Shown: piece after piece, positions 1-59,756 of the stretch
How the letters are laid out: every line of letters starts with the position of its first letter
Numbering within the stretch: the stretch's first letter is position 1
Origin: a virus
Lineage: Duplodnaviria > Heunggongvirae > Uroviricota > Caudoviricetes
Virus record (IMG/VR): IMGVR_UViG_3300014598_000002
Length of the DNA stretch: 64,000 bases
Reading direction: 5' to 3' (one strand)
Notes under the pieces: generated by a model
Told to the model about the DNA's origin: nothing
What the model saw: the letters and a program-made list of their open reading frames with translations, nothing else
Database searches by the model: none
Position numbers and translations under genes: made by a program

Positions 1-846
1 TTCATGGGGATGTCCTCATGTGGCTTATGAAGACATTACTAACATCACGGTGTATTAATCAACGGGGAGCAGGTCAAACGATGCATAGAGAAATAAGTAT
101 TTACTTACTTATCCAGTATATATAAGATTCACTTGTTTTCGTTGAGACGCGACTGTTTGAACGTTAAATATAACTGCAAACGAAGATACGTACCTGGCAG
201 TAGCCTAAGAAGCCAAACACCAGCGAGGTCAGTTTCCAGCCTCGTCACCGAAATGGGACACACTGAGCGAGTGTGATTGCAGAACGCAGGAGAGAGCATG
301 ATACGGCACCACCCATGCTCTTTCCGATGAAGTAACAGGATGGACGGTTGGTTTCCTCATTCCATTCCATCATCCCGGTTTCAGCCAGCTAACCGTCCAT
401 CCTGTTACGTCATTTCCATTACTTATGTCGTTTAATCTTGGGTTAAAAGCGGCGACGTAACCCGGCTGGTATGGTTAGCCAGCGCACAACGTTGAGGTCA
501 CTGTTTTCTTTTAATCATACAGGTGATTCCACAGAGCTGTAGCGACTGATTAATATGTTGGGTCGAACATAAATCGGTTCAGTGGCCTCAACGTTGTGAA
601 AGCAGGATTCTTTAACCCTCTGGTGAAATCATTGTTGCCTATGTAGCCCCTGGTTTCACAACATAGATGATTCCATACATCCGATAAGATCGAAAAATCT
701 GGCGGCCATCAACCGCCGTGAAGGATTCAAGATCTTCGCTCTATGTGAGCGAGCCACAAGCCTCGTCTGGCACTAACGGAAAGTGCAAGTTGCGGGAAAG
801 TCCTTGGTTGCCTGGTTGCCCATGAACAAGTACCGCCGCGAAAAAT

Positions 847-921
847 GATGGTGTAGCTCAGTGGTAGAGCGGTTGACTGTTGATCAACTGGTCGGTGGTT
901 CGAATCCACCCACCATCGCCA
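847..921 (+). tRNA. tRNA-Asn (anticodon GTT)
   Basis: Cloverleaf folds by hand. Acceptor GATGGTG pairs with CACCATC. D-stem GCTC/GAGC. Anticodon stem GTTGA/TCAAC around loop CTGTTGA, giving anticodon GTT. T-stem GGTGG/CCACC with TTCGAAT loop. Discriminator G and encoded CCA. Confidence 0.8.
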
Positions 922-1074
922 ACACAGCGCTGAACGGTTTGGAGTTCGCCACCACCGTCGGAACGGAAAGACTCCGCAAATGTCGCCAGACCGTTCAGCG
1001 CTGTGATAGACACGGCAGACGTTCTTAACCATTGCTTCTTAGCATCGTAGCAACACTTTTTTAGCGCAAAAATC

Positions 1075-1096
1075 AAAGGGGCTTCGGCCCCTTTTG
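1075..1096 (+). terminator. rho-independent terminator (AAAGGGGC-TTCG-GCCCCTTTT)
   Basis: GC-rich perfect stem with tetraloop, followed by a T-run, downstream of the tRNA. Confidence 0.6.
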
Positions 1097-1162
1097 CGTT
1101 GCTAAATATTTTGTTGGAGTTACATTTGAGCTATCTGCGAAACACTTTAGGGAACTCTACTG

Positions 1163-1888
1163 ATGGCAAAGCTATTTTTCAGCTTAAAACTTTGGGAGGC
1201 TAAGACATCAATAAGAGTCATGAATATGCTCGCTGAACAAGCTGAGACAAACATTGTAAGTGCTCTCAATGATGCCGCACTTCCGGGCGCGGTATTGGAA
1301 GATGAGTTTGAAGATTATCATGAGGATGATGACGGTAATGTTTATCGGTATACGGTACCGTATTTTACCTGCGGCTCCAGTTCTGGATATAATGCTGATG
1401 AAGTAAAATCGAAACACAAACACCTGATTACACAACTTACTCGTCGTTCAGCTTTTTTGACGATGTATGGACTATTTGAATACCACGTGGTCGAATGTCT
1501 TGCTGTCATGGATAAATTGTCGGGAGAGGAGACTGACAAAAAATTCAAATTGGTCGAAGACTGTCATAAGCGACTTACTGGATCTATAGGTGGCAAAGGC
1601 ATCAGAAGCATTGATCATCTTGCTGCAATCAGAAATATCATGGCCCACAATGACGGTGTTGTCGAAAATTATCATAGCCTTGCAAATTCAACCTTAAAGA
1701 AATCACGTGAGATTCGCGCAGTAAACCGAGCAATGAATGAAAACGCTGGTATAACAGTCAATACTTTCGACGAGATTCTCATGAACGATCGGTTTCTGAT
1801 GTATGTTGTAGGCGAGTTTGACAGATATGTTCGCGAGTTGGAGGCGGCAGTTATCTACTATCAAAAAGCATCTGTTAATTTTGGCTAA
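1163..1888 (+). CDS. HEPN-like protein (Rx4H motif R-NIMA-H), putative abortive-infection/RNase-type defense protein
   Basis: 241-aa ORF, AT-richer than the backbone. Contains IRNIMAHNDG, which fits the HEPN Rx4-6H signature. Sits right after the tRNA. Confidence 0.45.
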   Translation: MAKLFFSLKLWEAKTSIRVMNMLAEQAETNIVSALNDAALPGAVLEDEFEDYHEDDDGNVYRYTVPYFTCGSSSGYNADEVKSKHKHLITQLTRRSAFLTMYGLFEYHVVECLAVMDKLSGEETDKKFKLVEDCHKRLTGSIGGKGIRSIDHLAAIRNIMAHNDGVVENYHSLANSTLKKSREIRAVNRAMNENAGITVNTFDEILMNDRFLMYVVGEFDRYVRELEAAVIYYQKASVNFG

Positions 1889-2048
1889 GTCATAAACTAT
1901 TTATCTGTAGCACCACCAGTAGTAGGAGTGAGGCTGTTTGCATGGAGATAACAACAATGAAAATAAACAGATAATACAGATTAAAACTTCACGTTTGGAA
2001 GAAGAAAAACGCAAAAAAATCATAGGGGCATGACTACCCCTACCAATT

Positions 2049-2963
2049 TCACATAAGTTTTTTCCCCTGTTTGATTACACCATTCCCATCAATGTAATTA
2101 AACGTCCGATCGGAAGAAAATACCCTTTCGACTGCATTATAGATGACACATGTATTGAAATGAGCAGCTAATTTTTTAGTTGCATGATACTGACCACTTA
2201 TGTCACCGAAATCCCCATACAGCACTATATCTTTCGATATGGGGAAAAGAACACAGGTATCTTCAACTAGAAAACCTGGTGAACCTGGCCTGCCATCTGT
2301 CCACATCAAGCTTACTGGGTGATCTGAAGTTATGAAGGTGCCTGATTCATCTGTAGAACGGAATAATCGCCAGCTACGGCTACGGAGCGCAGTATCAATA
2401 GCCTTAGACATTTCCATTTCTGCCGCTATGAGAAATTCACGCTTAACCGAAATTGAGAATTGCCCACCTTCGACAAAATTTTTCATCTTCTCAAATGGAA
2501 CTACGGGAAGAGATTTCGCAGATTTTTCCTCATAATCTCGGATAGTATCCTCGTATCTCTCTTGATTTAAAACAGTCATTTTCGCGACCATTTCTACTAT
2601 CGGGGTTATTTGAGATTGTAAGTGTTCTCGCATAGCTGGTGTTCTTACAGCGAGTAATGAAATAAAAGTGAGAAGAATATCCTTTGTTTCTCCTGAGAAT
2701 GGCTTACCCTGACTAAGATTATTAAGTTCTGTAGCAACGCTACCCTCAAACTCAGCCAGTGTACTTTCGAGTACATTAGGATCAACATCTTCAGCATCAA
2801 TTCTGTTAAAATCTCTAACCCCTCCTACATTTCGAGTGTTAGATTCGAAGATTTTTTTATTTTTTAGATCAAAGGCAGTAAGCTTTGATTTCACACCTCT
2901 ATTTTTCGTAAATCCTCGCAAATAGCACTGAGAAAGGTAGTGATGATGTCTAGCTTGGTTCAC
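2049..2963 (-). CDS. DUF4238-like protein (resembles the Rst_DUF4238 single-gene anti-phage family)
   Basis: 304-aa AT-rich ORF. N-terminal HHYLSQCYLRGF matches the characteristic DUF4238 N-terminal motif (H-h-P-x-x-Y-L-r-x-F). GTG start with AAGGAA RBS 5 nt upstream. Confidence 0.5.
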   Translation of the reverse strand: MNQARHHHYLSQCYLRGFTKNRGVKSKLTAFDLKNKKIFESNTRNVGGVRDFNRIDAEDVDPNVLESTLAEFEGSVATELNNLSQGKPFSGETKDILLTFISLLAVRTPAMREHLQSQITPIVEMVAKMTVLNQERYEDTIRDYEEKSAKSLPVVPFEKMKNFVEGGQFSISVKREFLIAAEMEMSKAIDTALRSRSWRLFRSTDESGTFITSDHPVSLMWTDGRPGSPGFLVEDTCVLFPISKDIVLYGDFGDISGQYHATKKLAAHFNTCVIYNAVERVFSSDRTFNYIDGNGVIKQGKKLM

Positions 2964-3040
2964 AGTTATTCCTTATGACGCAAAAAATGTAAATATGAAT
3001 TGTGATAATATTATTCAGTTAATGCATTCTCAAACTGAAC

Positions 3041-58343: not shown

Positions 58344-58586
58344 TTATTCGAAAATCTCACTGCCCTGATTCGCATCGTCCCTGTTGTCCCACAAATCATC
58401 GAGCGCCTCTTCTCTTGTCCCGAAGGGGCCGGAGACGACAGGTGCGTTTGAACTGGTATCGTCCAGCTCTGTGTAAATCTGACCGTTAACCAAAATGACG
58501 CGTCCGACAGCGATGCCGCCATGTAGCAACTCGCCTCTCTCGGCGTCGATGCTGAAGTACCCGTCTGTGTAGTCTTTAGTGCTCAT
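58344..58586 (-). CDS. hypothetical small protein
   Basis: ATG with an AGAGGG RBS on the minus strand. Confidence 0.4.
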   Translation of the reverse strand: MSTKDYTDGYFSIDAERGELLHGGIAVGRVILVNGQIYTELDDTSSNAPVVSGPFGTREEALDDLWDNRDDANQGSEIFE

Positions 58587-58731
58587 CACATTCCCTCTGA
58601 GTTAGCCAGATACATACATAGCAATAAATCGGCACAAGCACATCAGCCTTTAAGGAATTCTTTTTCCCCGATTTCTTATTGCGATAATAACACCAACAAG
58701 AAAACAACATGTTTAGACAATGGAGAAACAC

Positions 58732-58953
58732 ATGTACAAGCATCTGAATATCAGCATCACCCTCTGTGGCGAGGAAGAGTCCCCCGAGTGTGAGATCTCC
58801 CTCGATGACGTCATCCGTTCCCAGGATGTTGCTGGTCGCGTGGCGACGCTCATCTCTGAAGGATATAGAGAAGGGACGTTTGATTTCCATATCGAGGACA
58901 ACCCAATGTCCGTCGCGTGGAACTGCACGACGTCAGAAACGAAGTTAGGGTGA
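58732..58953 (+). CDS. hypothetical small protein
   Basis: Motif B plus a GGAG RBS upstream. Confidence 0.45.
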   Translation: MYKHLNISITLCGEEESPECEISLDDVIRSQDVAGRVATLISEGYREGTFDFHIEDNPMSVAWNCTTSETKLG

Positions 58954-58957
58954 AGAG

Positions 58958-59176
58958 ATGATTAAGATGCCTGTGATGGTTGAGGTGTGGAGCGTGGATT
59001 CCTTGGCTGAGTGCCTGGATGCTGTGGGGCCGGAGTTGTACCGCAAGTTGTGGTCGTTCGTCCCGGCTGAAGGGGTATCACCCAAAGGGAAGGATATCTG
59101 GCATCTGCTCAGTGAAGATGAACAGCGGGAGCTGGTGGACGCGGTACACATCGAGTTCCCGGACGACGAAGATTAA
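58958..59176 (+). CDS. hypothetical small acidic protein
   Basis: 72 aa, translationally coupled to the upstream gene. Confidence 0.45.
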   Translation: MIKMPVMVEVWSVDSLAECLDAVGPELYRKLWSFVPAEGVSPKGKDIWHLLSEDEQRELVDAVHIEFPDDED

Positions 59177-59316
59177 GCGTGAGGCCACCGTGCTGGTGGC
59201 TTTTTGCTGTTTGCAACCTCCGGGGCAGCGTAGCACCGTAACGCTATGCTTTGTAGCCGTTTTCTCGCTGGTATTATTTACACCAACAAGAAAACAAGTT
59301 GTTTACGGAGTGAATT

Positions 59317-59628
59317 ATGAAGAACGCGATGATCACCAAACTGAGCGCGGGCCAGCCACGTAAAGAAAAACCAACCGTAATGAGCCAACTGACCCTGCTC
59401 GATATCATCGCCAACGGCACTGCCATTCGCCTGTTCAAAGAGACGCTGGTCTCGTTCGACAATGGTTCCCGCACGCGTTACGTAATGAGTGTGCGTCGCC
59501 AGAGTGGAAGAGGGTGGATGGCAAAACAGATCATCTGGCCAGAAGGAGAGCTGGAACAGGCGCTACTGGAGGCGAACAAAGTAGCCCAGCAAGAAATCCA
59601 GCGTGCCTCTCTCCTGGCGACAGCCTGA
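59317..59628 (+). CDS. hypothetical protein
   Basis: Motif B plus a GGAG RBS upstream. Confidence 0.5.
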   Translation: MKNAMITKLSAGQPRKEKPTVMSQLTLLDIIANGTAIRLFKETLVSFDNGSRTRYVMSVRRQSGRGWMAKQIIWPEGELEQALLEANKVAQQEIQRASLLATA

Positions 59629-59756
59629 CATGTGCAAAAGCGATTAGTCGTCCCTACGACAGCCCCGTCCATCCTTCGGGGCTTTTTTGCTTACCTGTAT
59701 TGTAAGTACTTACCTATGGCAATAATATAATCAGGTCAACAACAGGGAGACCAAAA

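Follow-up and report, generated by a model that had tools for sequence, protein, structure and literature searches.

A Dispersed 20-bp Intergenic Palindrome of SSU5-Type Phage-Plasmids as a Candidate Operator of Their XRE-Family Repressor

The Element and Its Palindromic Motif

The window analyzed here is a 64,000-nt (64-kb) stretch of the IMG/VR virus record IMGVR_UViG_3300014598_000002, in which a 20-bp palindrome recurs in the gaps between genes. From nt 20000 to 40000 the window is 97.5% identical to Salmonella phage SSU5, and nt 1-25000 are 98-99% identical to plasmids of about 110 kb from Enterobacter, Citrobacter and Salmonella; judged by these identities, it is therefore part of an SSU5/pHCM2-type phage-plasmid. 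It comprises the replication and nucleotide-metabolism region of the element, several cargo islands and part of the maintenance region. A 7.7-kb stretch at about 960-8691 is an insertion compared to SSU5; it contains the genes for an integrase and an XRE-type helix-turn-helix (HTH) protein, and the palindrome is a candidate operator of this protein, the putative lysogeny repressor of the element.

All 15 copies listed in the original prediction are present, offset by 0-5 nt from the positions given there, and three more were found at 3741, 8232 and 9689, making 18 in the window (Table 1). The consensus consists of the half-site ATARGTAAGT followed directly by ACTTACYTAT. The half-site contains an internal TAAG-TAAG repeat, and all 20 positions are conserved about equally. 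Information content is limited to these 20 bp, the only sequence that the copies have in common, and the flanks are unconserved. A pattern search of the window returned 34 matches where 0.34 were expected, and 16 of its 20-mers have at most four mismatches to ATARGTAAGTACTTACYTAT (0.05 expected from shuffles). The copy at 11179 is weak, with five mismatches and an apparent 1-nt deletion, and the copy at 38302 has a center that is 2 bp longer. The palindrome is genuine and strongly conserved. Nothing relevant to the motif sequence itself was found in the searchable literature.

Conservation among Related Elements

Five enterobacterial elements of the SSU5 type carry 20-26 copies each, compared to one weak match in 50 kb of P1. 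In SSU5, Cyrano, Klebsiella phage ST13-OXA48phi12.3 and the distant Klebsiella plasmid NZ_CP065827, whose proteins show 35-90% identity, there are 20-26 copies per 100 kb, and they occupy orthologous gaps and share the same consensus; the conservation in related elements, which had been suggested as a check, is thus evident. SSU5 has 26 copies, 24 of which lie in the non-coding 11.6% of its genome (probability ~1e-20 by our own binomial estimate), and there are none in its last 10 kb, the maintenance region. When four orthologous intergenic regions are aligned, the motif stands out as a conserved island within otherwise diverged DNA.

Variation within the motif is informative. In the enterobacterial elements, positions 7/14 are A/T in 19-24 of the 20-26 sites of each element, and G occurs there at most once in any of them. 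Position 4 alternates freely between A and G, so the supply of transitions is not limiting at position 7. In each of the relatives from Acinetobacter and Aeromonas, a palindrome of similar layout but with a sequence peculiar to that element is dispersed between the genes. The Mu1956-type element of A. baumannii carries the variant AGTCAGTACTGACT at 13 sites in 50 kb (0.9 expected), with C at position 7 in 12 of the 13, and the pDD520-type element of the same species has AGTAAGyGCTTACTAAT at seven sites in 40 kb (0.65 expected), with A at position 7 in six of the seven. The Aeromonas relative shows a third variant. Since two elements of one host species differ at the specificity position, it is the element rather than the host that would set the binder.

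An exact 18-mer scan of IMG/VR retrieved 47 SSU5-like loci and also 28 unrelated AT-rich viral loci. The latter hold single copies of GTAAGTAAGTACTTACTTAC with no TetR gene nearby, and are not interpretable as convergent arrays. At the IMG/VR loci L024, L067 and L070, from unrelated AT-rich phages, a TAAG-type palindrome (GTAAGTAAGTACTTACTTAT) lies 47 bp from a TCAG-type palindrome (ATCAGTCAGCACTTACTGAT), the same two variants as those of the two Acinetobacter phage-plasmid clades.

Placement Relative to Genes and Promoters

It was originally predicted that the copies are nearly all intergenic, just downstream of a stop or terminator and 30-80 nt upstream of the next start. The first part holds, since 17 of the 18 copies are intergenic (that at 9689, in a cobT-like CDS, is the exception) and many follow a stop or terminator, lying from -8 to +38 nt relative to the upstream stop codon. 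The 30-80 nt range does not, as the distances to the next start are 1, 12, 13, 17, 32, 39, 39, 46, 47, 59, 86, 115, 129, ~520 and 734 nt. With start-codon distances spread over 1-734 nt, and with no fixed spacing to -10 elements either, the motif does not behave as the specialized promoter class that had been offered as an alternative.

The proposed temporal regulon, as stated, is likewise unsupported. In the complete relatives, copies are found in early, replication, late structural, lysis and cargo gaps alike, including positions after the genes for the large terminase, the major capsid protein and tail proteins, and before the holin gene. Because the late structural operon also carries copies, no single temporal class can be assigned, and the regulon seems to comprise whatever the lysogen keeps silent.

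Two promoter-like sites, upstream of nrdA and of the gene at 21735, are conserved across clades and place the motif core exactly within the 17-bp spacer. At the latter, the sequence is TTGAAA-17-TATCAT in SSU5 and Cyrano, and TTGATG-17-TATTAT in Kp p2. Read from these predicted promoters, the arrangement is that of an operator and not of a promoter motif.

Table 1. Positions of the palindrome copies and of associated features in the window. Promoters are predictions from sequence.
Feature	Position	Strand	Context	Relatives and remarks
Copy ATAAGTATTTACTTACTTAT	93-112		Directly past stop of upstream open reading frame (ORF), 734 nt before tRNA-Asn	Orthologues at SSU5 41773 and Cyrano 38252
Copy GTAGGTAATGACTTACTTAT	3741-3760		Divergent gap, 47 nt upstream of phoH-like ATG (3808)	Absent from original list
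Integrase gene	6719-7825	+	Inside 7.7-kb insertion	No counterpart in SSU5
XRE-family HTH repressor gene (putative), 128 aa	7817-8203	minus	Beside integrase	Pfam HTH_31 (weak); 66% identity to CYRAN_45
Copy TCTGGTAAGTGCTTACTGAT	8232-8251		28 nt upstream of repressor gene start (8203, minus)	Kept at Cyrano 42603
Copy GTAGATAAGGACTTACCTAC	9689-9708		Weaker; within cobT-like CDS, in sole stop-free reading frame	Orthologue at SSU5 43661
Copy ATAAGTAATCACTTACTATA	11179-11198		Weak; 17 nt past cobT stop, 59 nt before cobS start (11258)	
Copy GTAAGTAAGTACTGATCTAT	18159-18178		86 nt before ssb start (18265)	
Sigma-70-like promoter TTGGAA-17-TATCAT	21677-21705	+	Motif core in spacer	Predicted
Copy ATATATAAGTACTTACTTAT	21683-21702		Past terminator 21648-21668, 32 nt before ATG 21735; fills promoter-like spacer	
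Copy ATAAATAAGTACTTACCAAC	23733-23752		AAGGAG directly after, then ATG at 23766 (13 nt)	
Copy ATAAGTTAGTATCTACCTAT	24061-24080		1 nt before ATG 24082	
Copy ATAGGTATTCACTTACTTAT	29025-29044		Divergent gap, 115 nt before sbcD start (29160)	Conserved island in five-element alignment
Sigma-70-like promoter TTGATA-17-TAACAT	33717-33745	+	Motif core in spacer	Predicted; kept in five elements
Copy ATAGGTAAGTGCTTATCTAT	33720-33739		11 nt past upstream stop, 46 nt before nrdA ATG (33786)	
Copy AATTGTAAGTATATACTTAT	38302-38321		Overlaps stop of mazG-like gene	Center +2 bp
Copy ATATGTATGTACTTACTTAT	38456-38475		Past terminator, ~17 nt before thyX start	
Copy ATAGGTAAGTATTTACCTAT	44515-44534		12 nt before dam ATG (44547)	1 mismatch
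Copy ATCGGTAAGTACTTACCATT	45572-45591		Overlaps stop of ORF 45343-45579	
Copy ATAAGTAAGTATTTACCTAT	46767-46786		4 nt past RNase H-like stop, 129 nt before start 46916	1 mismatch
Copy ATAGGTAAATGCTTACCTAA	51723-51742		Abuts stop of DUF4942 methyltransferase-like gene; 39 nt before start 51782	
Copy TATTGTAAGTACTTACCTAT	59698-59717		Past terminator, 39 nt before start 59757	
FljA-like protein gene	63120-63683	minus		PF03614, E 6e-97; conserved in 832 plasmids and all SSU5-type elements

A Site on Double-Stranded DNA

Changes in one half of the palindrome are independent of those in the other. At positions 4/17, Watson-Crick pairing is seen in just 6 of 16 sites, there is no covariation, and mispairs of the G-U type and the A-C type are equally common. 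Predicted RNA hairpins of the motif average -3.1 kcal/mol, three of the 16 remain unfolded and none is followed by a U tract, compared to -13 to -14 kcal/mol for genuine terminators of the window. No Rfam family matches the motif. From the weak hairpins and the independent variation of the half-sites, the motif is therefore best read as a protein-binding site on double-stranded DNA, and the dimeric DNA-binding regulator put forward in the original prediction gains support from the conserved double-stranded palindrome.

The elements also encode an FljA-like protein (Table 1). Its AlphaFold model, with a predicted local distance difference test (pLDDT) score of 83, shows a tandem helix-plus-five-strand repeat, and Foldseek matches it to Hfq with template modeling (TM) scores of 0.75-0.85 and a root-mean-square deviation of ~1.1 Å. 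On this model, the FljA ('phase-1 flagellin repressor') family appears to be a duplicated Sm/Hfq fold. Genes annotated as 'RNA chaperone Hfq' are present in the Acinetobacter and Aeromonas relatives.

The XRE-Family Repressor

The HTH protein encoded beside the integrase is related to CYRAN_45, which is listed as the putative master repressor in the published expression table of Cyrano and is expressed in LF82 lysogens. Its family is found in about 1000 plasmids, with a genus spread nearly that of the FljA-like marker gene, and homologues are recognizable in the related phage-plasmids of A. baumannii and Aeromonas. Among 80 enterobacterial-type loci, overall identity falls from 100% to 48%, while the recognition helix YKN(A/P)NNLSLIKSG is invariant, and this helix differs in each clade that has a different operator variant. 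When IMG/VR was searched for additional, more diverged clades of the repressor, only close relatives came up.

Each of the six elements examined (the window, Cyrano, Kp p2, both Acinetobacter elements and the Aeromonas relative) has at least one motif-like copy 28-130 nt ahead of the repressor start. There are two in the distant Klebsiella plasmid and three in one Acinetobacter element. The copy at 8232 of the window combines a perfect 12-bp core with degenerate outer flanks, and is a putative autoregulatory operator of the repressor gene. SSU5, which is described as virulent (PMC5427195), lacks both the repressor and the integrase, yet retains 26 intact sites, a pattern that a virulent deletion derivative would be expected to display. 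In Cyrano, the lysogen-expressed genes other than the repressor appear to have no good copy upstream, judging by the site coordinates and one published expression table; one of them, CYRAN_81, lies downstream of a degenerate copy with five mismatches.

Because the recognition helix is invariant within the enterobacterial clades, the motif variants are specific to the element, copies precede the repressor gene and SSU5 has lost the repressor, the explanation that fits best is that the palindromes are an operator network, partly stoperator-like, of the element's XRE-family lysogeny repressor. We regard this as probable, with moderate confidence, both the identity of the binder and the repression being inferred from sequence comparison. 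While the element is a plasmid-prophage, dimers of the repressor would sit on about 18 sites of the window, or 20-26 per genome, in the short gaps between lytic genes. At nrdA and at the gene at 21735, where the operator lies in the spacer of a predicted sigma-70-type promoter, RNA polymerase would be excluded, while sites that abut stops, ribosome-binding sites and ATGs in long same-direction operons, including the late operon, would act as stoperator-like roadblocks to read-through. The copy 28 nt upstream of the repressor gene would provide autoregulation, and the dispersed operators together would keep the lytic genes silent in the lysogen.

Several points weigh against this assignment. 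The link between repressor and motif is drawn from four clades only, and the repressor of the pDD520-type element has a very different helix, yet its operator retains a GTAAG core like that of the enterobacterial elements. The gap upstream of the repressor gene is among the longest, so a copy there could be due to chance. Uniform conservation over 20 positions and the TAAG-TAAG repeat are more typical of TetR-type dimer-of-dimers operators; in classical Cro/CI operators the center is usually variable. Other conserved proteins of the elements are candidates too: two ParB-like ones show 68% identity to the distant clade, and a putative DNA-binding protein of 88 aa shows 75%. The motif core also fits the binding rule of the host protein SlmA.

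Similar Palindromes and SlmA

SlmA is the nucleoid-occlusion factor of the host, and its binding sites (SBS) have the consensus GTGAGTACTCAC, in which G1, T2, A4 and G5 are required, position 3 may be any purine and position 6 any pyrimidine (PMC3020112). Against this 12-mer rule, three window sites are perfect, eight have one mismatch and five have two. A second SlmA sequence in the PDB, probably that of Klebsiella, is identical in its N-terminal DNA-binding half.

An exact-pattern scan of bacterial genomes found the same type of palindrome at a minimum of 120 loci from many phyla. Among the 120 listed, 55 have the start of a TetR-family gene within 250 nt of the palindrome, and the proteins encoded have a SlmA-like HTH region (E down to 1e-14), in one case with a SlmA-like C-terminal domain. 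By this association, palindromes of this type are TetR-type operators elsewhere in nature. The palindrome RTAAGTRAGYRCTYACTTAY is widespread in Acidobacteriota and other phyla, where it lies beside TetR-family genes and genes for HlyD/TolC-type efflux, a neighborhood which suggests that a TetR subfamily with a SlmA-like HTH has it as operator. Searches of the five element genomes by tblastn, using SlmA and a palindrome-adjacent TetR protein as queries, detected no TetR/SlmA homologue (E > 0.2).

Alternative Explanations

A specialized promoter or activator site that defines a temporal gene class would account for the many copies found upstream of genes and after terminators, for the right-end TAT that often opens a -10-like hexamer (TATCAT, TATTAT), and for the five of nine plus-strand promoter-like hits in 18-38 kb that overlap a motif copy. 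The total of such hits is, however, no higher than in shuffled sequence, and the register of the motif relative to -35/-10 elements differs among sites. The copies at 23733, 24061 and SSU5 2031 (which overlaps a stop and has the next ATG 16 nt on) are too tight to accommodate a -10 element, a transcription start and a leader. Nearly all genes lie on the same strand, whereas a palindrome is without direction; given also the wide spread of start-codon distances and the copies in early, late and cargo regions, a promoter class is very unlikely. The position of copies at cistron boundaries near ribosome-binding sites could reflect a role in RNA, as a hairpin terminator, a processing or stabilizing element, or an FljA-like target for translational repression. 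All of these elements encode the FljA-family protein with its Hfq-like tandem fold, and genuine FljA prevents translation of fliC mRNA (PMC2652032). Such a role is nonetheless highly improbable: palindromic symmetry would be meaningless in single-stranded RNA, compensatory changes are absent, as is any strand bias towards G-U pairs, and an intrinsic terminator or structured RNA was rejected on the hairpin energies, the missing U tracts and the lack of covariation. The FljA-like protein was also set aside as the binder; although conserved in all elements, it has an RNA-binding tandem Hfq/Sm fold, and the E. coli fliC leader contains no motif-like sequence. Finally, gene-boundary positions, and the fact that only 20 bp are shared, might point to boundaries for modular recombination or to a small mobile palindromic element. 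This is barely credible, since the synteny breakpoints between the window and SSU5 (959/8692, 16632/17672, 42154/43420, 47435/49950 and 56461/56926) fall away from the copies, on which ground the recombination boundary was rejected, and since the copies sit at orthologous places in clades whose proteins differ by 20-65%, and are therefore old and maintained rather than recently spread.

The remaining alternatives concern the identity of the DNA-binding protein. Another global regulator of the element, in the style of KorA/KorB, could be one of the two ParB-like proteins or the 88-aa protein, which is encoded before the terminase. ParB/KorB-type proteins bind dispersed intergenic palindromes and silence promoters, the candidates retain 68-75% identity in all clades, enough to keep their specificity, and the evidence for an element-encoded binder suits them as well as it does the XRE repressor. 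The sites are not clustered at the parB-like locus, though (one copy in Cyrano, none in SSU5 and Kp p2), and SSU5 retains these genes and yet behaves as virulent, which is better explained by loss of the XRE repressor; we consider this regulator quite unlikely. If instead the copies were SBS, a dense array recruiting or activating SlmA could couple division to segregation, block division during lytic replication, or employ SlmA as a co-opted repressor. In favor of SlmA, the central 12 bp of the motif (GTAAGTACTTAC) conform to the published rule (PMC3020112), 14 of 20 positions match the 20-bp SBS consensus GTAAGTGAGCGCTCACTTAC with four more being permitted purine/pyrimidine changes, and the motif half-site is almost reproduced by ATTTACTTAC, which forms the right half of SBS17, a natural site (PMC4423959). 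At most two mismatches to the 12-mer rule, as in SBS17 and SBS12, are found in 16 of the 18 window sites, and the window holds three perfect and nine one-mismatch matches to the rule against 0 and 1.15 expected, while P1 is not enriched. To this may be added the TetR-family genes with a SlmA-like HTH beside 55 of the 120 listed bacterial loci, and the lack of any detectable TetR/SlmA homologue in the elements themselves. An SBS in a promoter spacer represses transcription, multicopy SBS combined with SlmA production blocks division (PMC3573117), and SBS on the plasmid-derived Vibrio Chr2 help to license division (PMC8826520, PMC5353653). Against SlmA, positions 7/14 are nearly always A/T although SlmA accepts G there and has G as its consensus, perfect cores occur in only three of the 18 sites, and conservation is even over 20 bp rather than focused on the SlmA-critical bases. 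The two A. baumannii elements differ exactly at position 7, which points to specificity set by the element, and the C variant breaks the SlmA rule. Acinetobacter is, moreover, not known to have SlmA. This element-specific variation argues against SlmA as the main binder, and it was demoted from that role after the Acinetobacter comparison and the position-7 pattern; we now think it unlikely. Some cross-binding of SlmA in enterobacterial hosts has, by the resemblance of the cores, a small chance of being real. It is similarly doubtful that the operators double as high-affinity SBS, in which case SlmA and the phage repressor may compete, or nucleoid occlusion may be linked to segregation or lytic replication. 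No paper linking SlmA to these elements was found in the searchable literature.

Other Features of the Window

Compared to SSU5, the cargo islands of the window lie at 960-8691, 16664-18133, 42202-43317 and 47579-49648. Their products include a DUF4238 protein (2049-2963, minus), a PhoH-like ATPase (3808-4581) and the integrase and HTH repressor (6719-8203), as well as a DUF4365 protein (489 aa), a GTPase/DUF697 protein (371 aa) and a STAND/AAA NTPase (689 aa). This content looks defense-like and occupies variable hotspots. A tRNA-Asn (GTT) gene is found at 847-921, 734 nt 3' of the first motif copy, and the intervening stretch (113-846) contains no convincing ORF.

A hairpin GGCCACTATATTTAGTGGTC with a T run occupies 33746-33769, between the putative -10 element of nrdA and the nrdA ATG, and is kept in five elements. 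Either it terminates transcription coming from upstream, with the promoter overlapping it, or it is a 5' stem-loop or attenuator of the nrdA transcript.

The Chi sequence GCTGGTGG is present in 18 copies in the window (8 forward, 10 reverse), compared to about two expected for a random 8-mer, and in 31 copies in the 103 kb of SSU5. This excess suggests adaptation to the RecBCD of the host.

Matches to CTGT-N8-ACAG, which has the spacing of a LexA box, occur at 6675 and 55556 of the window and at 41046 and 89277 of Cyrano. They are found directly upstream of the integrase gene and, in Cyrano, also upstream of a gene for an S24 LexA-like peptidase. Cyrano has been reported to be ciprofloxacin-inducible, and on sequence grounds these matches are a possible SOS input. 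A second AT-rich inverted repeat, C(T/C)GTATATATAA...TTAATATATACAG, is present two to three times per genome, at ~45170-45215 in the window, at ~33460 and 78310 in SSU5, and at ~31165, 78090 and 108345 in Cyrano. Its ends resemble LexA half-sites, but the spacing is far too wide for a LexA box.

Comparison with Known Systems and Significance

The proposed operator network may be compared to the C1 operators of P1 or the stoperators of mycobacteriophage L5. Like P1, the elements described here are enterobacterial phage-plasmids with many scattered operators for one repressor, in our case a proposed one. Such operators are found at the promoters of genes for replication and recombination; in the annotated P1 record, C1 operators are associated with ref, mat, ssb, c4 and kilA-repL, and here copies precede ssb, nrdA, dam and sbcD, among others. 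P1 operators are 17 bp long and asymmetric, and C1 is not an XRE-type protein. The late genes of P1 are shown in its annotated record as controlled by the Lpa activator at -22 boxes, whereas here the 20-bp palindrome continues throughout the late operon too.

For L5, Brown et al. are said to have described, in 1997, some 25-30 stoperators for gp71 in short early and late intergenic gaps, some of them overlapping stops or starts, and these were reportedly read as roadblocks that silence the whole prophage. The L5 sites are reportedly 13 bp long, asymmetric and orientation-dependent, and the repressor is said to bind as a monomer. In contrast, the sites described here are palindromic and have no orientation, and the hosts and phages are unrelated. 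No consistent left/right asymmetry of the motif was seen across the elements, so they are not stoperators in the strict L5 sense.

With the Cro/CI-type (XRE-family) systems of lambdoid phages, the proposed network shares palindromic operators, one of them in the repressor's own control region, and a repressor that is a small HTH protein. Lambdoid phages, however, have about six operators at two loci, while here there are 20-26 spread over 100 kb, the 20-bp operator has a conserved center and the TAAG-TAAG repeat, and the repressor lacks an S24 peptidase domain. The KorA/KorB operators of IncP plasmids are also palindromic and dispersed in intergenic regions, and silence many operons together, but they involve other protein families and sequences and number only 7-12 sites. 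The SBS of the E. coli and Vibrio chromosomes share the core GTRAGYRCTYAC and the TAA...TTA flanks with the motif, and an SBS footprint covers 20 bp with four subunits bound. They differ in density, with 24-52 per 4.6 Mb (PMC4423959) as opposed to 20-26 per 100 kb here, and in position 7, which here is fixed as A and changes with the element rather than with the host.

Phage-plasmids of the SSU5/pHCM2/pMT1 type are widely distributed among clinical Klebsiella, E. coli, Enterobacter, Salmonella and Yersinia, and the two marker genes match 830-1000 plasmid records. No description of lysis-lysogeny control in these elements was found in the searchable literature. Should the resemblance to SlmA sites prove functional, a mobile element would be connected to host division control, and about 25 SBS per copy at about five copies per cell would offer more binding capacity than there are SlmA molecules (300-400) to fill it. 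If the palindromes are indeed the operators of the XRE-family repressor, this group would have a defined operator sequence, a likely repressor and a mapped set of all the genes silenced, and the virulent behavior of SSU5 would be explained. The immunity groups of these phage-plasmids would then be predictable from one recognition helix and one operator specificity position (7/14).

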